Shown: positions 2,336 through 12,620 of the stretch, one piece after another
How the letters are laid out: every line of letters begins with the position of its first letter
Position numbering within the stretch: position 1 is the stretch's first letter
Source: Chthonomonas calidirosea
Lineage (GTDB): Bacteria > Armatimonadota > Fimbriimonadia > Fimbriimonadales > Fimbriimonadaceae
Assembly (NCBI GenBank): GCA_945859975.1
Contig: CAMAPH010000046.1
Location: 1-20,342, forward strand
Reading direction: 5' to 3'
DNA length: 20,342 nucleotides
Notes under the pieces: model-generated
Seen by the model: only the letters and a program-made list of their open reading frames with translations
Told to the model about the DNA's origin: nothing
Databases searched by the model: none
Made by a program: the position numbers and the translations under genes

Positions 2336-3406
2336 CTACGCAAACAGCGGTTCGCAAGCTTCAAGCCGCGGACCTTTCTCGTCACAAACCGCAAACTGCG
2401 ACCGTCCGCTCATGCAGACTCCGGCGTAACGCCCCTGTTTGTCTAGGACGTAAAAGTTAAGGCCGAAGTTCGGTCGCCCACCCGGTCCGAGCAAGCGCTT
2501 TTCTTTGGTGTTGCTTACGACGCGCTTTAGCGCTTCCAGCCCGGCGTCCTTCGGGTGCTTCCCACGTCTAAGCTCCTCGACAATCAGATAGGAGCACAGG
2601 TTGTACAGGTTCGCTTCTCCTCGTCCGGTTGATCCCGCCGCGCCGACTTCGCCGTCCACGTACAGTCCTGCCCCCAGAATTGGCGAATCGCCCACCCGAC
2701 CGGGAATCTTGAAGGCCAAGCCGCTGGTCGTGGTTACGCCGCAAATCTCACCCTTCGCGTTCATGCCGTTGCAGTTGATCGTGCCCCAAACGTGCTCGGG
2801 GTCGAGAATCCCTTCCTCCGCCATCTGCAGGGCCACCGCAAGTCCATCGCGCTTCGTTGGGTCCAGGTAGTGCGTTGGGTCGGTTCGCCGCTTCCACTCC
2901 AACCACTTTCCGCGACTGTTTGGAGTGTTCAAATCGGGCTCAATCGTCATGCCCATGCCGCGCGCGAACCGTTGCGCGCCTTCGCCGACGAGGAGGTGAT
3001 GGTCGGTGCTCGCCGCCACCGCTTTCGCCACCAGCGACGGCGTCCGAATGCCCTCCAGCCCAGCCACGCCGCCGGCCCATCGCTTCGGCCCGTGCATCAC
3101 GCACGAATCGAGCTGAACGACACCTTCGGCATTCGGCAGTCCGCCGTATCCCACCGAGTCATCCTGCGGGTCGAGTTCAACGATGTTCACTCCGGCGATC
3201 ACGGCGTCGAGGACATCTGCCCCTTCGGTAATCATCCGGAAAGCCCGCTCCACGCAAGTCTCCGTCCCGCCGTTTTTAAACTGATATCCGTTGCCGGAGC
3301 TCACCACCAGCGGCCGCGGCGCGGACTTTGGGATGAAGGAGAATCCAATCGAAGGCTGCAGGGCCAAGGCAGCAGAACTCGCTAAAACGTCGCGGCGGGT
3401 GAGCAT
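2336..3406 (-). CDS. Tat-exported Ntn-hydrolase, N(4)-(beta-N-acetylglucosaminyl)-L-asparaginase / type-2 asparaginase family
   Basis: TRRDVL twin-arginine signal; SVGYGGLPN, QLDSCVM, TTTSGLAFKIPGRVGDSPILGAG and STGRGE motifs; autocleavage site WG|TINC. Confidence 0.9.
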   Translation of the reverse strand: MLTRRDVLASSAALALQPSIGFSFIPKSAPRPLVVSSGNGYQFKNGGTETCVERAFRMITEGADVLDAVIAGVNIVELDPQDDSVGYGGLPNAEGVVQLDSCVMHGPKRWAGGVAGLEGIRTPSLVAKAVAASTDHHLLVGEGAQRFARGMGMTIEPDLNTPNSRGKWLEWKRRTDPTHYLDPTKRDGLAVALQMAEEGILDPEHVWGTINCNGMNAKGEICGVTTTSGLAFKIPGRVGDSPILGAGLYVDGEVGAAGSTGRGEANLYNLCSYLIVEELRRGKHPKDAGLEALKRVVSNTKEKRLLGPGGRPNFGLNFYVLDKQGRYAGVCMSGRSQFAVCDEKGPRLEACEPLFA

Positions 3407-3442: not shown

Positions 3443-4360
3443 TCACGGTCGAACGCCTCGGCGAAATCCGCCAAACCCGAACTTGCTTGGGTTGTATTCA
3501 CCCACTAAAGTAACGTCTGCTGTGGCCGGCACCGCCGAGCCGCTTGCCCAGTAAACGCTATTCACAATCATCCGCCGGAAACCGGGGTTCACAAAGTCCG
3601 TCGCCGCGCCCATGGTGCACGTCACCACGCGGTTGGTCACTCCCGCGGAGTTCACCGGCTCCCGAACCCAGAGGATCGGCATCATCGGCTCGTTCACGTC
3701 CTGTTCCGTGCCCTTCGCCGTCTTCTTGCTTCCCTTAAACTTCGGGTCACCCGAGGCCATCCCCGCGACCACTTCTCCGCGCATCAAGACTTGCGCGTTC
3801 TCGGGTGGAGCCGCTTCATAGACGTCGGTGGTGCCGAAAACATCGGACACGCCGTTCAAAATCGGATGCTTCGCCACGGCGACGGCGCGCGTGCCCTGCG
3901 AGCCATGGTCGCCCCAATGCGAAACCCAAGTTTCGCCCAAGACTTGCTTCCCAAACCCGCCTGGCCAGGCCTGCGAGTTAAAGGAAAAGCGTTTGTAGGC
4001 GCTCTTGGAGTCGGCCGGATAAGCAAAAGCGTGGGTGCTGGTTCGGATTCCGATGATCGGCTTTCCGGCCAAGTAGTAGTCAACAAAATGCTTCATCGAA
4101 GCATCGTCCCACTGCCGGAACCGCAGCATCATCACGCACACGTCGGCGGTCTTCAGCGCCTCGAGCCCGGGCTGATTCTTTTGGTTCTCCGGGTCAATCT
4201 CGCCCTTGTCGTTTACCGAGTAAAGAACGGTGCAGCGAAACCCTTGCTTCTCGAGAATCTTCGCGAGCTGCGGCAGCATCTCTTCCGAGCGATACTCCTC
4301 GTCCCCGGCCAGGAGAACGGCATGCATCGGCGGCTTCACCATTGCCAGTAGCTCGATCAT
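3443..4360 (-). CDS. ThuA-like (trehalose utilization / class I glutamine amidotransferase-like fold) protein
   Basis: LAGDEEYRSEE, PGLEALKTAD, LRFR, GIRTSTHAF, WVSHWGDH and TMGAATDF motifs typical of ThuA-like domains. The ATG directly abuts the upstream stop codon (0 nt gap). Confidence 0.75.
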   Translation of the reverse strand: MIELLAMVKPPMHAVLLAGDEEYRSEEMLPQLAKILEKQGFRCTVLYSVNDKGEIDPENQKNQPGLEALKTADVCVMMLRFRQWDDASMKHFVDYYLAGKPIIGIRTSTHAFAYPADSKSAYKRFSFNSQAWPGGFGKQVLGETWVSHWGDHGSQGTRAVAVAKHPILNGVSDVFGTTDVYEAAPPENAQVLMRGEVVAGMASGDPKFKGSKKTAKGTEQDVNEPMMPILWVREPVNSAGVTNRVVTCTMGAATDFVNPGFRRMIVNSVYWASGSAVPATADVTLVGEYNPSKFGFGGFRRGVRP

Positions 4361-5203
4361 TTAGCCCTCGCAAACCACGCGGAAGCCTGCGAAGGGCGCG
4401 TCCGAAAGCCACCAGCGGCTCTTTGGCATTTGCGGATCGGTCTCCTGCCAACTTGGCTGCCAACGGCGACGCGTATTTGGCGAAACCGCGTTGAGCGGGT
4501 CGCGGAAAGTCGGTCCGCAGAGCAAAGGCTTCCCTTCGGCGTCCGTCGTCCACTCGCCCACGTTGCCCAGCATGTCGTAAAGGCCAAACGGGTTTGGCGC
4601 TTTCTTTGCCACCGGCATGGTCATCTCGTCGGTGTTGGTCACGTTCCAAGACTGCTTTTCGATCGCCGCTTTGTCGGCCTTCCAAGGTCCAGCGACTCCG
4701 CCGCGAGCGGCCATATCCCACTCGGCTTCGGTCGGCACGCGGTACTTCTTGCCGGTGACCGAAGACAGCCAGCGGCAGAACATCTCGACGTTCGTAAAGC
4801 TGAGGTTGATCGCCGGATATCCGCGGTGACCCCAACCGAGGTCGGGGAGGATGTAGCTCTTGCTGGGTCGCGCGATGGCGTCAGCGGTGTACTCGGTCTG
4901 GTCGTACGGTTTCGAGGACGGCCCGCTGGCAAGGAAAACATCAAACGCTTCCCACGTCGTTTCGGTGGTGGCGATGAAAAACGGCTTCAGGGTCGTGGTT
5001 TTTCCACCGACCGTCGAGTTTCCACCCGCAATCGGCACCATCTTAATTTTTACGACCGACTTAGGTAGCGTTACCTCGTAGGGCGCGGGCGCCGCTGGAT
5101 CCTGAGCAACGCCCAAGCCTGCAAAAGAAGCCATGGTGATTACCAAGCCAAACGTGGAAAAAGTTCTAGCTCGAAGTCTTCGTGGGGTGGTCGCTTTACT
5201 CAT
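4361..5203 (-). CDS. Formylglycine-generating enzyme (FGE/SUMF1)-fold secreted protein lacking the catalytic Cys pair; start uncertain (ATG 5203, TTG 5146 or ATG 5134)
   Basis: TETTW, YPAINLS, FCRWLS..TGKKYRVPTEAEW, PNPFGLYDMLGNVGEW and GFRVV motifs; signal peptide ending GVA-QD. Confidence 0.9.
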   Translation of the reverse strand: MSKATTPRRLRARTFSTFGLVITMASFAGLGVAQDPAAPAPYEVTLPKSVVKIKMVPIAGGNSTVGGKTTTLKPFFIATTETTWEAFDVFLASGPSSKPYDQTEYTADAIARPSKSYILPDLGWGHRGYPAINLSFTNVEMFCRWLSSVTGKKYRVPTEAEWDMAARGGVAGPWKADKAAIEKQSWNVTNTDEMTMPVAKKAPNPFGLYDMLGNVGEWTTDAEGKPLLCGPTFRDPLNAVSPNTRRRWQPSWQETDPQMPKSRWWLSDAPFAGFRVVCEG

Positions 5204-6140
5204 GGCGTCGTATGCTCTGACGGCTACCGCCCATTCACCGGTTCGGCAAGAGCCTGCAGAGCTAAGCCGTTTTACCTTAGTGGAATATCACATGGGCATC
5301 GATGCCCGGATCATCCTCTACGCCCCAGATCAGAAAACGGCCGAGGTCGCGGCAGAAGCGGCATTCAAGCGCATCGCGGTCTTGGAGGATGTCATGAGCG
5401 ACTATCGTCCCACCAGCGAGCTGATGCGCCTCTGCGCGAAGCCAGCAAAGACTCCCGTAAGGATTTCTGCCGATCTCTTTAAGGTTCTAGAAGAAAGCCA
5501 GAAGATTTCGTCTCAGACGGGCGGCGCTTTTGATGTCACCGTTGGTCCGCTGATCCAACTTTGGCGAAAGGCTCGGAAAGAGGTCAAGCTCCCCGATCCG
5601 CAGCTCATCCGTGCGGCCAAGAAGTTGGTTGGCTATCGCAAGCTTAAACTCAACGCGAAAGATCAAACCGCCACCCTCGCAGAGAACGGTATGCGACTCG
5701 ATCTCGGCGGAATTGCTAAAGGCTTTGCCGCGGACGAAGCCCTTATCCAGCTTCAGAAGAACGGCGTCAAAAGCGCTCTGATCGAAATGGGCGGCGATAT
5801 CGTTCTGGGCGACGCCCCACCAAAAACCGAAGGCTGGCAAGTCATCGTGCCGAACAATACTTCGGGCAAACCGGAGATGACCCTGAAGAACTGCGCCATC
5901 TCAAGCTCGGGCGATACAGAGCAGTTCGTGGTCATCGGAGGCAAACGCTACTCACACGTCGTTGATCCTAAGACAGGCAATGGACTGACCCGCCGAGTTC
6001 AGGCAAGCATCATCGCCCCAAACGGACTCACGTCCGATCCGATCTCCACCGCGCTAACGGTGCTGAACGAACGCGGACGTGAGCGTTTGTTGCGAAATTA
6101 TCGGACGTCGAAGGTGTTCATCAAAACCGCCTCCGACTAA
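5133..6140 (+). CDS. apbE: FAD:protein FMN transferase ApbE (start uncertain: ATG 5133, GTG 5187 or ATG 5202)
   Basis: HMG, MSDYRPTSEL, GAFDVTVGPL, DLGGIAKGFAAD, EMGGD, SSSGD, YSHVVDPKTG and SDPISTAL motifs; hydrophobic N-terminal export signal. Confidence 0.95.
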   Translation: MVITKPNVEKVLARSLRGVVALLMASYALTATAHSPVRQEPAELSRFTLVEYHMGIDARIILYAPDQKTAEVAAEAAFKRIAVLEDVMSDYRPTSELMRLCAKPAKTPVRISADLFKVLEESQKISSQTGGAFDVTVGPLIQLWRKARKEVKLPDPQLIRAAKKLVGYRKLKLNAKDQTATLAENGMRLDLGGIAKGFAADEALIQLQKNGVKSALIEMGGDIVLGDAPPKTEGWQVIVPNNTSGKPEMTLKNCAISSSGDTEQFVVIGGKRYSHVVDPKTGNGLTRRVQASIIAPNGLTSDPISTALTVLNERGRERLLRNYRTSKVFIKTASD

Positions 6141-6144
6141 ATCC

Positions 6145-7521
6145 TCAATACTCGCGATCGATGACGATGCCTGGCTGCGGAACCGGATACTTTCCGGTCG
6201 CGTCTGGCATCAGCGGCGAATCGGAAGTCGAGGTCAGCTTGTCCACGTTTGGCGCGAACGAGTGCTCGCAGTTGAGCATCTGATCGTACGTGATGACCTG
6301 GCCGGTGTGCGCGGCCATTCGTCCCATGCTCGTAGCAACGCTCGCCTGAACGCCGCGTGGCACTTCGTTGTAAGGAGTGTTGTTTCGAATCGCCTTCATC
6401 AGCGTTTCCCACTCGTTCTGGTACGGATTCGTTCGGTCCGTTGCAATCCACTTCGGCGTGCCCGTGAGAGTCTGGTTCGAGAAGATCGCCGCTGGGCCGC
6501 CACAGTCGCCGGTTCGGGCGGCGATAGCCGAGCCCTTGGTTCCGTGAATGTAGCTGGAGAACTGGCCGTGAGCGCCGTTTACGCAGCGACCATCGAAGAA
6601 GAACTTCGAGCCGTCAGCATAGGTGTACTCCACCGAGTACGAGTCAAAGTTCTGGTCGATGAGCGGAACGCCATCGGAGTTGACGCGGTAGTGCCGTCCG
6701 CCAAGGCCCTGAGCCGAGACTGGCCAGCCGTTCTTCATCCAAGAGAGGTGGTCGATGTGGTGGATGTAGAAGTCGCTGAAGCAGCCGCCACTGGCCCAAA
6801 GGAAGCTGTGGAACCGTCGGATCTGGTACTCCAAGTGGCTCATGTTGTCTGGCTTCGGAGTCGATTCAAACGATGCCGCCGGACCGTGCATTCGGTAACC
6901 GCGCATCAAAATGATCTCGCCCAACTCGCCGCTGCTCACCTTATCGTGAAGCTGCTGAAGTCCAACCGTGTGGCGGGACATAAGACCAACGCCGACCTTA
7001 AGGCCAGCCGCGCTCGCCTGTGCGGCGAGTTCGAGCATCTTCTTGCTCGTGGGGCCGTCGGTGGTGACCGGCTTCTCCATGAACACGTTCAGCTTCTTCG
7101 AAATGGCGTACTGGAAGTGGACCCATCGGAAGGCCGGTGGCGTCGTAAGGATGACCACATCGCCAGGGTTCAGCGCATCCATGGCTTGCTTGTAACCATC
7201 AAAGCCGACAAACTGCTTCTCTTTCGGTACTTCCATCTGGCCCGCAAAGTTCTTGATGAGGTTGCCGTGGCAGTCATCAAGTCGGTCCTGGAAAACGTCG
7301 GCCATCGCGACCAACTTCATCGGTCCTTGCTTGGTGGAGAGGGCGTTTGCGGCTGCGCCGCCGCCTCGTCCACCGCAGCCCACAAGAGCGACCTGAATGG
7401 TGTCGGCTCCTGATGGATGAACGTTACCGAAACCGATGTTCGGAAGCAGCGCACCCGCGGCAAGGGTTCCAGAGGCCTTAATGACCTGGCGGCGGGATAA
7501 ATTTGGGTTCGAAAAGTCCAT
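6145..7521 (-). CDS. Tat-exported Gfo/Idh/MocA family NAD(P)-dependent oxidoreductase
   Basis: Start reassigned from 7569 to ATG 7521, which has GAGGA 9 nt upstream. SRRQVIK Tat motif, ALVGCGGRG Rossmann loop, LTTPPAFR, FMEKP, DFYIHHID and C-terminal PVPQPG. Confidence 0.92.
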   Translation of the reverse strand: MDFSNPNLSRRQVIKASGTLAAGALLPNIGFGNVHPSGADTIQVALVGCGGRGGGAAANALSTKQGPMKLVAMADVFQDRLDDCHGNLIKNFAGQMEVPKEKQFVGFDGYKQAMDALNPGDVVILTTPPAFRWVHFQYAISKKLNVFMEKPVTTDGPTSKKMLELAAQASAAGLKVGVGLMSRHTVGLQQLHDKVSSGELGEIILMRGYRMHGPAASFESTPKPDNMSHLEYQIRRFHSFLWASGGCFSDFYIHHIDHLSWMKNGWPVSAQGLGGRHYRVNSDGVPLIDQNFDSYSVEYTYADGSKFFFDGRCVNGAHGQFSSYIHGTKGSAIAARTGDCGGPAAIFSNQTLTGTPKWIATDRTNPYQNEWETLMKAIRNNTPYNEVPRGVQASVATSMGRMAAHTGQVITYDQMLNCEHSFAPNVDKLTSTSDSPLMPDATGKYPVPQPGIVIDREY

Positions 7522-7644
7522 GGTTTGAGGTCCTCGTAGATCTCGGGTAATCGATACGATACCGCGCAATTTAGGACTACGGTGAATCGTCGTTTTAACG
7601 CGCGACTTTGAACTCGGTTTAACGTTCCGTTAACCCGCTTCGGC

Positions 7645-7657: not shown

Positions 7658-8866
7658 ATGAGTCTTGTGCAAACCACTCTCGCAATGATCCTTTCCATCA
7701 ACGGAATCGGACAGCAGGCCCCCGACGCAATGGGCGACGCGAACCCTCCAACCCAGGTCCGAATTTCCTACGGCGAAGATCCAACCCGAATGATGCGCGT
7801 AGTTTGGCAAACCAAGACCCCAACCAAATCGCTGGTTGTAAAGTACGGAACGAGCGACAAGCTTGAGCAAATGGCCGTCGGCAACCGCCCCACCTACGCC
7901 TACGAAACCGGTGCTCTCGCCGAAGCAACCCTCTACAACTTGAAGCCAAACACGACTTACTTCTACCGCTGCGGTAGCGATCAGGGCGGCTGGAGCGATG
8001 TACAGTCTTTCCGCACGGCCGATCCGAATCCGAAAGAGTTTGTCTTCACCGCCTTTGGCGACCATGGCGTTTCCGCGGACGCCGTTTCGAACGTGAAGAA
8101 CGTGCTGTTCGAAAAGCCAGCCTTTCACCTGCTGCTCGGAGATATCTCTTACGCGAACGGGAATCAGCCGATCTGGGACACGTATCTCGCTCAAATCGAG
8201 CCGATGACCCGCTCAATCCCTTACATGCTTGCGTACGGAAATCACGAGAACGAGGACATCACGGTGGACGGAAAGAAGCTGGACATCGGCTACATCGCCA
8301 CCATGACGCGATTTGCCATGCCTGGATTCGAACAGAGCTACGAGTTCGATTACGGCAATGCCCGCTTTGTGACGTTCAACTCGGACGACTATGAAAATCC
8401 GGTTCAGCAGATGTGGCTTGACCGAACACTAGCCGAGGCGCGGCGGAACAAGAAGGTCAAGTGGCTCATCGTTTTTGAGCACCACCCGCTCTACGGCACC
8501 TCAAAAGGTCGCGGTGATAACGCGGGCCTCATCAAGGCAATCAGCCCGATCCTGGATCGCTACAAGGTCGACCTAGTCCTCGCCGGTCACGACCACCACT
8601 ACGAGCGGCAGTATCCGATGCGCAATCAGCAGATCACGAGCACGCACAAGAGTAAGTACAAGAAAGGTGACGGAACCCTATACATGATTCAAGGAGGAGG
8701 CGGAAGAAGCCTTTATGACTTCACGGATCCCAAGCCCGCCAAGTGCGCGGTCCGAGAGAAGACCAACGGCTACGTGCGTATCACGGTGCCAAAGAAAGGT
8801 TCTCTGAAAATTGAGGCAAAGAGAGTCGACCGGTCCTTGATCGAAGTGATCGAAATCGCAGACTGA
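7658..8866 (+). CDS. Purple acid phosphatase-type metallophosphoesterase with N-terminal FN3-like domain
   Basis: All five PAP metal-binding blocks are present: GDHG, GDISY, GNHE, FEHHP and GHDH. N-terminal domain has MRVVW and LKPNTTYFYRCG; C-terminal GGGG and GYVRITV. Confidence 0.9.
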   Translation: MSLVQTTLAMILSINGIGQQAPDAMGDANPPTQVRISYGEDPTRMMRVVWQTKTPTKSLVVKYGTSDKLEQMAVGNRPTYAYETGALAEATLYNLKPNTTYFYRCGSDQGGWSDVQSFRTADPNPKEFVFTAFGDHGVSADAVSNVKNVLFEKPAFHLLLGDISYANGNQPIWDTYLAQIEPMTRSIPYMLAYGNHENEDITVDGKKLDIGYIATMTRFAMPGFEQSYEFDYGNARFVTFNSDDYENPVQQMWLDRTLAEARRNKKVKWLIVFEHHPLYGTSKGRGDNAGLIKAISPILDRYKVDLVLAGHDHHYERQYPMRNQQITSTHKSKYKKGDGTLYMIQGGGGRSLYDFTDPKPAKCAVREKTNGYVRITVPKKGSLKIEAKRVDRSLIEVIEIAD

Positions 8867-8915: not shown

Positions 8916-9317
8916 TCAGGCTGGCATCAAGACGGTGTCGATCACGTGGATCACGCCGTTCGAGGCTTCGACGTCGGCCGTGGTGACCGTCGCGTCGTTG
9001 ACTTTCACGCCATTTGCTGCGTCAATCGCAACGTCCGAACCCTGGACGGTGGTTGCGGAGGTGAGCTTCACCACATCAGCGGCCATTACCTTTCCGGCAA
9101 CGACGTGATAGGTGAGGATCGCGGTGAGCTTTTCTTTGTCGGCAAGTACTGCAGCAAGGGTTTCGGCTGGGATCTTTGCAAAGGCATCATCGGTTGGAGC
9201 GAAAACCGTGAATGGACCCTCGCCCGAAAGCGTTTCGATGAGACCCGCGGCGGTAAGGGCGGTTGCGAGCGTCGTGAATGATCCGGCTTCGACGGCTGTT
9301 TCAATGATATTTTTCAT
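8916..9317 (-). CDS. Single-domain fasciclin (FAS1) protein
   Basis: [19 protein letters not shown] (H1), ILTYHVV and [12 protein letters not shown] (H2); AGGA Shine-Dalgarno upstream of ATG 9317; no signal peptide. Confidence 0.95.
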
Positions 9318-11384: not shown

Positions 11385-12620
11385 ATGAAGAACTGGGCGG
11401 GAAATCAAACCTACAGCACCGATGTGGTCGCTGCTCCCAATTCGGTCGAGGCACTGCAGCAGGTGATCCGAAACGCGAGCAAAGTGAAGGCACACGGCAG
11501 CCGACACTCGTTCAACACCATCGCGGATACCAACGGAACGATTATCTCGCTGGAGAACTTTCAGGAGATTTCTGAACCGAATCCCGAAACGCGAACCGTC
11601 ACGATCGGAGGCGGGGTTCGCTATGGCGAGTTGGCTGTCCGTCTCCAAGAAGCAGGCTGGGCCTTGCACAACTTGGCATCTCTCCCGCACATTTCGGTTG
11701 CTGGGGCGATCGGTACCGCGACGCATGGTTCCGGATATCGAAACGGCAACCTCAGCACCGCCGTGGTCGGGCTCAAGTTCGTCGACGGTCGAGGCGAGGT
11801 GCACGCGTTGGATGAAAGCGATCCCAAGGCGCTCGACTCCCGAATCGTTCACTTAGGCGCGCTCGGCATTATTTACGAGCTCACGCTGCGAATCCAGCCA
11901 ACCTTTGAGATTCGGCAAACCGTTTTCGAAAATCTGCCGTTCCAAACTGGCCTCGAACACCTAGCCTTCATCGCACAACTCGGCTACTCCGTGAGCCTGT
12001 TCACGCGTTGGTCGGAGCCCGTTTTCGAGCAGATTTGGCTAAAAAGCGAAAGCGAGCTACCCGTCCCAACGGAGATTCTCGGAACTCTTCCTGCGACGAG
12101 AAAGCTACACCCACTTGCCGAGCTACCGTCCGAAAACTGCACCGATCAGCTCGGCGTTCCCGGCCCCTGGCACCAGCGATTGGCGCATTTCAAGATGGAG
12201 TTCACCCCAAGCGCGGGTGAGGAACTTCAGTCCGAGTACTTCGTTTCGCTGGAGGACGCTCCTTCAGCACTTGCAACGCTCTCCGTTCTCGCGCCAGAAC
12301 TGGCTCGGTTGGTGTTTGTCACCGAGGTCCGGTTCATCGCTGCCGATAGCCTGCCCATGAGTCCGGCGTACGAACGCGACGTCGTCGGAATTCACTTCAC
12401 TTGGAAGCCACTCTGGGCCGAAGTCGAGCCGATGTTATCTCTCATCGAGACACTGCTTGACCCGTTCAATCCGTGCCCGCACTTCGGAAAGCTGTTCACC
12501 TTGCCAACGGAGCGGCTGAAGGAGGTCTATCCTCGACTCCCCGAATTTGCAGATATCGCTGACGAGCACGATCCACACGGCAAGTTCCGCAACGACTTCC
12601 TAGAGAACATTCTTGGATAA
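11385..12620 (+). CDS. xyoA: FAD-linked alditol (xylitol) oxidase, VAO/PCMH family
   Basis: NWAGN, GSRHSFN (covalent FAD His), LHNLASLPHISVAGA..TATHGSG, HFKMEFTPSAGEELQSEYFV, EVR, HFTWK and PHFGKLF match Streptomyces AldO/XyoA as I recall them. Confidence 0.85.
   Translation: MKNWAGNQTYSTDVVAAPNSVEALQQVIRNASKVKAHGSRHSFNTIADTNGTIISLENFQEISEPNPETRTVTIGGGVRYGELAVRLQEAGWALHNLASLPHISVAGAIGTATHGSGYRNGNLSTAVVGLKFVDGRGEVHALDESDPKALDSRIVHLGALGIIYELTLRIQPTFEIRQTVFENLPFQTGLEHLAFIAQLGYSVSLFTRWSEPVFEQIWLKSESELPVPTEILGTLPATRKLHPLAELPSENCTDQLGVPGPWHQRLAHFKMEFTPSAGEELQSEYFVSLEDAPSALATLSVLAPELARLVFVTEVRFIAADSLPMSPAYERDVVGIHFTWKPLWAEVEPMLSLIETLLDPFNPCPHFGKLFTLPTERLKEVYPRLPEFADIADEHDPHGKFRNDFLENILG

Follow-up and report, generated by a model that had tools for sequence, protein, structure and literature searches.

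The window analysed here is the whole stretch of 20,342 nucleotides at positions 1 to 20,342 of contig CAMAPH010000046.1, from Chthonomonas calidirosea (Armatimonadota; assembly GCA_945859975.1). On its minus strand, the gene at 4361..5203 (stop codon included) encodes a 280-residue protein of the formylglycine-generating enzyme (FGE) fold, which appears to be exported and is proposed as a carrier of covalently bound flavin mononucleotide (FMN). Divergent from it, on the plus strand at 5133..6140, lies a gene for an ApbE of the flavin adenine dinucleotide (FAD):protein FMN transferase family (Pfam ApbE, 2e-70) with a signal-like N-terminus. An oxidoreductase of the Gfo/Idh/MocA family (GFO), recognised from its Pfam GFO domains and carrying a twin-arginine translocation (TAT) signal, is encoded at 6145..7569 on the minus strand, convergent to ApbE, and is the proposed redox client. 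The subject of this study is a short segment of the FGE-like protein, D108-A-I-A-R-P-S114 (4862..4882, minus strand), as a candidate non-canonical motif for flavinylation by ApbE, in which Ser114 (codon 4862..4864, minus strand) would be the FMN acceptor.

Results

An FGE-fold protein with a family-specific loop

In the translation of the open reading frame (ORF) at 4361..5203, DAIARPS is present as residues 108-114, between TTETTW and YPAINLS, as the initial annotation had placed it. Generic FGE-like proteins show a gap at this position in the alignment, and the segment is therefore an insert, which had also been proposed. The family-specific insert as a whole covers residues ~93-126 (4826..4927, minus strand), as delimited by alignment, AlphaFold2 confidence and conservation, and it also holds a conserved ...Y117..P-D-x-G-[FW]-G125-H126. 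The ApbE target consensus D-x-x-[ST]-G-A-[ST] is not matched by the protein, which retains the Asp, the spacing and the terminal Ser but has other residues in place of S-G-A. The proteins of the cluster had been described as lacking a canonical [ST]GA[ST], and this was borne out by a six-frame scan, in which the three such strings in the window all fell outside the frames of the cluster genes.

FGE-sulfatase (PF03781), the sole Pfam family matched by the protein, covers its residues 62-222 with 93.9 bits (cut-off 23.3; E 1.7e-26); none of the known ApbE acceptor domains was matched. When the AlphaFold2 model was compared with solved structures using Foldseek, PvdO (8.9e-13), 2y3c (a Treponema variable protein), CarF, pFGE and FGE were returned, all with probability 1.00. 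The monomer model, built from an 83-row alignment, has a mean predicted local distance difference test score (pLDDT) of 88.3 and a predicted template modelling score of 0.81. Confidence is low only at the N-terminus and in the loop (67 for residues 101-110 and 59 for residues 111-120). As modelled, the DAIARPS loop is conserved yet flexible.

With FGE/SUMF1 the family shares the fold and the G-N-V-x-E-W core, whereas the copper-binding Cys pair of those enzymes is absent, and the family is further marked by the additional loop and by a C-terminal motif rich in W, DPQ.PKS.WWL.D.PF.GFR. No Cys that is invariant or at least 90% conserved was found in 83 family members, a count made without explicit alignment of the FGE cysteine positions. 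As the family has no conserved Cys, the protein is not a formylglycine-generating enzyme. Sequence matches to FGE span only residues 126-221. A signal-peptide-like N-terminus, residues ~1-33 (5105..5203, minus strand; ending ...FSTFGLVITMASFAGLGVA/QD), was read from the translation, and a strongly hydrophobic N-terminal segment is found in 232 of 274 family members by a hydropathy heuristic rather than a dedicated predictor. From these features we infer that the protein is extracytosolic.

Conservation of the motif and the series from GA to RP

The family is large by each of three measures. A word-based search gave 1,649 relatives at E <= 0.001 among 2,856 candidates, a search from the distant member P0205 gave more than 4,290 at E <= 1e-10, and an exhaustive search of cluster representatives retained 636 at E <= 1e-30, among which multi-domain proteins are numerous. 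Conservation was determined on all 312 retrieved proteins shorter than 600 residues, of which 310 have residues at the motif site; these rows, selected for their likeness to two queries, are not independent of one another. P113 and G125 are found in 310/310, and residue 114 is Ser or Thr in 310/310 (S 278, T 32). D108, R112 (otherwise K in 7 and Q in 4), A/T/S at 111 and H126 are each kept in 295/310, Y117 in 305, K/R at 115 in 287, A109 in 282 and I/V at 110 in 261. A less selected sample came from 151 Armatimonadota genomes, in which there are 75 matches; 73 were used, the window gene and its paralog being left out. Here P113 and S/T114 were found in 73/73 and R112 in 67/73 (H 2, A 2, L 1, Q 1). 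Judged from these alignments, the conservation of DAIARPS is far beyond chance. Giant multi-domain FGE proteins were also considered as bearers of the motif and were rejected; [DNEQ]xxxRP[ST] occurs in 3/77 of them, none in register.

An invariant hydroxyl residue beside an invariant Pro, with a conserved Arg and Lys/Arg, could also mark, in an enzyme of some other activity, a catalytic nucleophile or a residue that is phosphorylated, glycosylated or otherwise modified, and the FGE fold does host diverse chemistries. No conserved kinase or glycosyltransferase is present in the neighbourhood, though, and the linkage to ApbE and the SGAT variants described below would go unexplained. We regard this explanation as very improbable.

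Metagenome contigs were scanned with the family alignment, and the encoded proteins were then aligned. At the DAIARPS column the protein of locus L089 reads V-D-A-V-S-G-A-T-T-P-Y, that of L094 D-A-V-A-G-A-T and that of L096 D-V-V-S-G-A-T. A further GA-type homolog, L158, reads DGVSGAT, and L089, L096 and L158 carry the full canonical ApbE motif. The flanks of the loop in GA-type L089 are near-identical to those in RP-type L087 (D-A-V-T-R-P-T-P-P-Y-T-D-M-S-F-G-M-G). When 201 Bacteroidota genomes were searched with the L089 protein, 11 matches were obtained, with the loops DGVSGAT, DAISGPT, DAVARAT, DGITRAT, DAITRPT and DAVTRPT, and further DAITRPS, DGLTRPS, DAVARPS, DVISKPS and DIISLPS. Other homologs read DGITGPT (P0215) and DAVTAPS (L098, L103). 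Thus GA, GP, RA and RP are all found at one column, at which the Asp (position -6) and the Ser/Thr (position 0) are kept. The initial annotation had mentioned relatives with DAxSGAT or DAxxRPT at this position; both occur among the aligned homologs, and the expected alternation of SGAT with xRP[ST] around a retained Asp and terminal Ser/Thr is seen in the homolog alignments. The segment is likewise conserved among homologs, with P113 and S/T114 invariant and D108 nearly so.

In the GA-type operons the canonical motif is found in the FGE-like protein alone. Their GFO and TIM-barrel neighbours were considered as bearers of it and were rejected: [ST]GA[ST] is absent from the GFO proteins checked (that of the window and those of the 4 GA-type operons, 0/4), and of the two TIM-barrel proteins checked, one has two motif strings, both within its TAT signal region, and the other lacks them. 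The GA-to-RP series is the strongest evidence that the loop may be a flavinylation site, with RP[ST] as its putative diverged form.

A conserved loop of this kind might instead be a docking or structural element, for example a contact with GFO or, as the DGDTRPG loop of PvdO perhaps is, a stabilising part of the fold, that carries no covalent modification and resembles the ApbE motif incidentally. PvdO also has D..TRP at the aligned site and no hydroxyl residue there; Y117, D121, G125 and H126 are also conserved, suggesting a wider functional surface; and the FGE-like gene is accompanied by the GFO gene as consistently as by ApbE. Such an element would not account for the four independent homologs with a full D-x-x-[SA]-G-A-T at the DAIARPS column, nor for the co-occurrence and cis linkage of ApbE, and the exclusive interchange of Ser and Thr at 114 fits a need for a hydroxyl. 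We consider a purely structural role unlikely.

Genomic linkage to ApbE

The window genome (3.12 Mb, 95.8% complete) has a single ApbE, that at 5133..6140. FMN_bind, NqrB/RnfD as well as DUF2271 were searched for in this genome and none was found; a search for DUF3570 gave no match either, but was uninformative, the control genomes being silent as well. A hidden canonical substrate was also sought in the genome and rejected, no redox-type protein with the motif being present. D..[ST]GA[ST] strings number 8 in its ORFs of at least 80 residues, about the chance expectation, and fall in a glycoside hydrolase family 2 (GH2) enzyme, a phosphoesterase, a pilin-like protein, propeller proteins and spurious frames.

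A survey of the 151 Armatimonadota genomes was carried out with a threshold of E <= 1e-30 for the FGE-like protein, and overlaps were compared by eye. The FGE-like protein was found in 70 genomes, ApbE in 100 and FMN_bind in 6. ApbE is present in 70/70 genomes with the FGE-like protein as against 30/81 without it, and FMN_bind in 0/70 of the genomes carrying the FGE-like protein. In families of mixed presence the counts match (11 and 11 in f1, 1 and 1 in f3, 2 and 2 in f19, 3 and 3 in f22). The distance between the two genes is within ~1.5 kb in at least 55 of the 70 genomes, 2.5-5 kb in 5 and 24 kb in 1; in 7 genomes ApbE is absent from the 2-4 kb examined on either side of the FGE-like gene, and in 2 the neighbourhood is cut by contig ends. 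Some Armatimonadota have H, A or Q for Arg112 (L221 in G020, L230 in G126, L233 in G144, L238 in G097 and L248 in G054). At these loci ApbE is not the divergent neighbour; it is found 2.5-5 kb downstream or reads in the same direction.

When loci were pooled by loop type, with L023 included, 45 of the 57 of the RP type had ApbE; 4 of those without it are short of flank, and the remaining 8 have room. ApbE was found in 0/4 GA-type loci, 0/2 RA-type loci and 0 of ~65 generic FGE-like loci that are without the loop. In Bacteroidota, the RP-type loci L167, L168 and L172 have an operon FGE-GFO-ApbE-TIM, and ApbE lies near the operon in L175 (KP type). Genomes with an ApbE-less locus had ApbE elsewhere in 10 of the 10 checked. 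A strict need of the RP type for a cis-encoded ApbE holds only in part, given the 45/57 loci and a Bacteroidota genome (G198) whose ApbE is elsewhere.

The linked ApbE and the predicted complex

The window ApbE matches the Pfam family with 237.8 bits, and among solved homologs it aligns with FmnB (7esa, 5.5e-42) and Treponema pallidum Ftp (4xdt, 3.3e-34). It is a member of the family and not the E. coli-type equivalog, as it scores 126.5 bits against a cut-off of 498. H275, the candidate catalytic base and putative counterpart of V. cholerae His257, stands in Y-S-H-V-V-D-P opposite the second His of FmnB Y-H-H-I-L-D-P. Invariant in 30 FGE-linked ApbEs are H275, S257, S259, G260, D261, Q264, G221, D222 and D302, which take in the GGD and SGD..Q motifs, and the FGE-linked enzymes have signal-like N-termini.

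In a tree of 67 ApbE sequences, a branch with 96% support in the Shimodaira-Hasegawa-like approximate likelihood ratio test (SH-aLRT) has 43 rows on one side, from several phyla and all FGE-adjacent; L031 and L033 are labelled 'other' among them solely since contig ends cut their FGE genes. On the other side are signal-less ApbEs, two ApbEs fused to FMN_bind and the divergent pair L167/L168. The tree does not set the FGE-linked clade apart from Nqr/Rnf-linked ApbEs, as none of those was included. Signal-less ApbE genes beside TAT-GFO genes are found at L050 (G028), L051 (G014), L053 (G068), L054 (G055), L058 (G135) and L065 (G049); at L058 the gene is also beside ThuA and DUF6807. At L060 (G062) and L063 (G099) a signal-less ApbE lies directly upstream of an Nramp transporter gene, beside a gene for a large Met-zincin (DUF4953). 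Such ApbEs may act on TAT substrates before export or have another role, and GFO or some other protein could be their target.

A complex was predicted from ApbE residues 40-335, FAD, Mg and residues 36-280 of the FGE-like protein. It scored 0.76 (runs 0.73, 0.76 and 0.78) as against 0.14 for the best of three controls. In calibration, 116 of 157 solved complexes came up to the 0.76 mark, as did 2 of 215 mismatched pairs. The runs share at least 85% of contacts, with partner pLDDT of at least 85. On the FGE-like partner the predicted interface comprises residues 91, 97, 99-102, 106-116, 120, 257-258 and 262-265, and on ApbE it includes 220-221 (GGD) and 256-264 (SSSGDTEQ). The pairs of least error are residues 107-111 of the FGE-like protein with 216-223 and 235-240 of ApbE. 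To our knowledge no ApbE-target complex has been solved, and a memorised complex therefore seems unlikely; neither a solved nor a docked complex of ApbE with a target is described in the available portion of a 2025 review (PMC12052999).

The GFO dehydrogenase as a possible redox partner

A TAT-signal GFO gene neighbours the FGE-like gene in 45 of 57 loci of the RP type and in all 4 of the GA type, and this neighbourhood recurs across Armatimonadota, Planctomycetota and Bacteroidota. The GFO gene is usually directly downstream of the FGE-like gene, and is often followed by a gene for a xylose-isomerase-like TIM barrel with a TAT signal. In the window GFO protein the TAT_signal match (3.4e-4) is below the cut-off, and an SRRQVIK motif is visible.

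A paralogous module is present on contig C4 (42542-45519) of the window genome (G000), in the order FGE-like, TAT-GFO and TAT xylose-isomerase-like TIM barrel, with no ApbE. Its FGE-like protein is 44% identical to that of the window, reads DAVSRPSKPY and has a signal peptide. As this module is without ApbE, both would have to rely on the one ApbE encoded in the window. At L089, a metagenome contig with a Bacteroidota-like polysaccharide utilisation locus, the GA-type FGE-GFO-TIM operon lies beside a SusC/SusD pair and is followed by genes for a nitronate-monooxygenase-like FMN enzyme and an amine-oxidase-like flavoprotein. At L094 a di-haem cytochrome c peroxidase is encoded 1.5 kb downstream.

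Two family members, P0205 (474 aa) and P0272 (481 aa), have an N-terminal cytochrome c'-like four-helix domain (CVTCH; CxxCH) fused to the FGE-RPS domain; the Cytochrom_C_2 match of the fusion, at 25.8 bits, is just under the Pfam cut-off of 26.5. Such fusions are rare, as a search seeded with P0205 gave P0272 as the sole further one among the 120 matches listed. Longer fused forms were searched for with the loop region of the window protein and none was found (1 candidate, unscored).

TAT-exported GFO enzymes have been argued to hold tightly bound NAD(P), with the re-oxidant left open (Liu et al. 2021, PMC8121099). A covalently flavinylated partner would be a chemically sensible re-oxidant of this cofactor. 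From the synteny and the rare cytochrome fusion, we would put the flavinylated protein as a redox partner of the GFO dehydrogenase at slightly less than an even chance.

Other genes of the window

A ThuA-like gene at 3443..4360 on the minus strand (Pfam ThuA 1.5e-10) begins directly after the stop codon of the FGE-like gene, and the two are probably in one operon. Its product has no obvious signal peptide, in contrast to the exported products of the neighbouring genes, and 12 of 37 related loci also have a ThuA homolog. When the FGE-like and ApbE genes are each taken as the longest ORF, they share 71 nt at their 5' ends (5133..5203), which makes the true start codons of both uncertain; the same overlap of divergent FGE-like and ApbE genes is seen at L002 and L003. 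In the database relative P0002 (95% identical, 257 aa) the start is called at an internal Met, so that the signal peptide is lost. Library matches further identified an asparaginase_2 (glycosylasparaginase-like) protein at 2336..3406, a purple acid phosphatase at 7658..8866, a fasciclin-domain protein at 8916..9317 and a D-arabinono-1,4-lactone-oxidase-like FAD enzyme at 11385..12620.

Discussion

We propose, with a probability of roughly 0.65, that the 280-residue protein is a member of a large, exported subfamily of the FGE fold whose loop D-A-[IV]-[ATS]-R-P-[ST] is a diverged ApbE site, and that Ser114 is flavinylated by a dedicated, exported ApbE. The initial annotation had suggested a divergent flavinylation site here, a reading now supported by the homolog series, the synteny with ApbE, the phyletic pattern and the predicted complex. 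In the proposed mechanism, the FGE-like protein would be exported by Sec, as its signal peptide suggests. The divergently encoded and likewise exported ApbE would then bind the flexible loop, with residues 107-111 lying along its strand 235-240, and would move FMN from FAD to the hydroxyl of Ser114; motif homology, synteny, phyletic pattern and the predicted complex all point to this step. The probability given refers to export and flavinylation. In a third step, the tethered FMN would re-oxidise the tightly bound NAD(P)H of the TAT-exported Gfo/Idh/MocA sugar dehydrogenase, and electrons would go on from FMN to some acceptor. Taken alone, this step is more tentative and falls a little short of even odds.

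Several observations weigh against flavinylation of Ser114. In the canonical motif, the single changes G->A and A->V each leave ~50% flavinylation, and Thr accepts FMN better than Ser (PMC12052999), for which reasons a canonical ApbE should use R-P-S poorly. PvdO aligns DGDTRPG to the loop, with Gly at the acceptor position, and R-P may therefore come from the fold and not from ApbE. Among RP-type loci, L021, L032, L038, L078, L087, L090, L170 and L171 have room on both sides and no ApbE. Some RP-type genes are linked to neither ApbE nor GFO, being found for example beside der and yceD; the 7 Armatimonadota genomes without ApbE near the FGE-like gene include some in which it stands among housekeeping genes, and Bacteroidota G198 has an RP-type protein with its single ApbE located elsewhere. 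In the same phylum, signal-less ApbE homologs adjoin TAT-GFO genes, with ThuA or DUF6807 and no FGE-like gene, so that the ApbE-GFO link is independent of the FGE-like protein. Related genomes are not independent samples for the phyletic counts, and the loop is modelled with low confidence in the monomer prediction. The complex score of 0.76 is the model's own confidence, and the custom alignments and riding ligands depart from the calibration. The case for a flavinylated Ser114 is wholly computational.

Several of these points would fit an RP[ST] loop that is the decayed relic of an ancestral SGAT site, with ApbE serving another target (GFO or an unrecognised protein) or acting as a periplasmic FAD pyrophosphatase or flavin-trafficking protein. 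R-P replaces G-A at positions where conservative changes already halve flavinylation (PMC12052999), signal-less ApbEs adjoin TAT-GFO genes where the FGE-like gene is missing, some RP-type genes have no ApbE nearby, and T. pallidum Ftp, a homolog of the window ApbE (4xdt), has been described as an FAD pyrophosphatase (PMC4767422). In a relic, however, P113 and S/T114 would not stay invariant (310/310 and 73/73). ApbE in cis goes with the RP type (45/57) and not with the canonical GA type (0/4), and it is kept in all 70 genomes with the FGE-like protein. The GFO proteins checked have no [ST]GA[ST], and the DAIARPS loop is itself the predicted ApbE interface. Decay of the site thus appears rather unlikely.

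The proposed flavinylation of an FGE fold would extend the known range of ApbE acceptors, which are the domains FMN_bind, NqrB/RnfD, DUF2271, DUF3570, Flavodoxin_4 and FMN_red (PMC8238504; 10.1101/2024.03.13.584918; PMC12052999). The FGE fold is unmentioned in the available portions of these three papers. FGE, sulfatase and ThuA have no mention in the part of the main text of Meheust et al. 2021 (PMC8238504) that was available, and PF03781, FGE-sulfatase, PF06283, ThuA and PF01408 are absent from the available text of its supplement, the coverage of which stopped short of the large tables, where an FGE entry is possible. No published report tying ApbE to FGE-like proteins was found in a search that covered the literature up to, and not including, the large supplementary tables of that study. 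NCBIfam has no model for the FGE-like subfamily. The same study left 670 genomes with orphan apbE unexplained.

Of the known acceptors, DUF2271 and DUF3570 (PMC8238504) resemble the window protein in being extracytosolic and without FMN_bind, in having been found via apbE linkage in genomes without other substrates, and in being single- or few-site acceptors; they differ in having a canonical [ST]GA[ST] on unrelated folds, whereas the window protein has x-R-P-[ST] on the FGE-sulfatase fold. The FMN_bind proteins NqrC, RnfG, NosR, PceC and PplA (PMC12052999) combine, as is proposed for the window protein, a periplasmic Ser/Thr acceptor, seven residues after an Asp, with an exported ApbE and electron transfer. 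Their fold is another one, with G-A where the window family has R-P (same-phylum members read R-A-L-[ST]-G-A-T), and in the window family, unlike in these proteins, Ser is far commoner than Thr (278 vs 32).

By both sequence (1e-15) and fold (8.9e-13), the best solved match is PvdO (PDB 5hha), a periplasmic FGE-fold protein of pyoverdine maturation that lacks the FGE cysteines and is named dihydropyoverdine dehydrogenase in NCBIfam. The window protein is not a PvdO, since it scores 65 bits against the 500-bit cut-off of the PvdO model. We know of no link between PvdO and ApbE. In the alignment, A-D-G-D-T-R-P-G-R of PvdO lies opposite A-D-A-I-A-R-P-S-K of the window protein (P0001 residues 104-118). 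The D..xRP element may predate the putative flavinylation site in the PvdO branch of the fold.

No flavin binding is known for the FGE fold. Flavinylated Flavodoxin_4 and FMN_red proteins (Huang et al. 2024, 10.1101/2024.03.13.584918) also illustrate that ApbE sites arise in unrelated folds and structural settings, but their folds are already those of flavoproteins. The glycoside 3-dehydrogenases of the BT2158 type and ThuAB (PMC8121099) are similar to the present system in having a TAT-exported GFO enzyme, often with a TIM-barrel partner, and a ThuA-like gene is present here too. The window GFO differs, scoring no more than 31 bits where the BT_2158 model demands 750, and the B. thetaiotaomicron BT2158 operon, as described in the available part of that paper, has no FGE-like gene.

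Flavinylation by ApbE is itself already known, and the finding is best described as its extension to another fold with another motif. The six known ApbE domain types were all found with [ST]GA[ST] (PMC8238504; 10.1101/2024.03.13.584918; PMC12052999), and motif-based surveys would miss x-R-P-[ST]. It is conceivable, with the odds somewhat against it, that the widespread exported FGE-fold family of Armatimonadota, Planctomycetota, Bacteroidota and other phyla is a class of covalent flavoproteins as a whole, in which the loop FMN is a swinging cofactor that re-oxidises the tightly bound NAD(P)H of TAT-exported GFO enzymes acting on glycosides or polyols and a dedicated ApbE clade accepts x-R-P-[ST]. 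If the proposal is true, the FGE fold would join the covalent flavoproteins, and the specificity of ApbE would be broader, which is relevant to flavin-tag labelling of proteins (PMC12052999). It would also provide a concrete candidate re-oxidant for the NAD(P) bound by periplasmic sugar dehydrogenases of the Gfo/Idh/MocA family, and periplasmic dehydrogenases loaded with NAD(P) could then turn over without a nucleotide pool.

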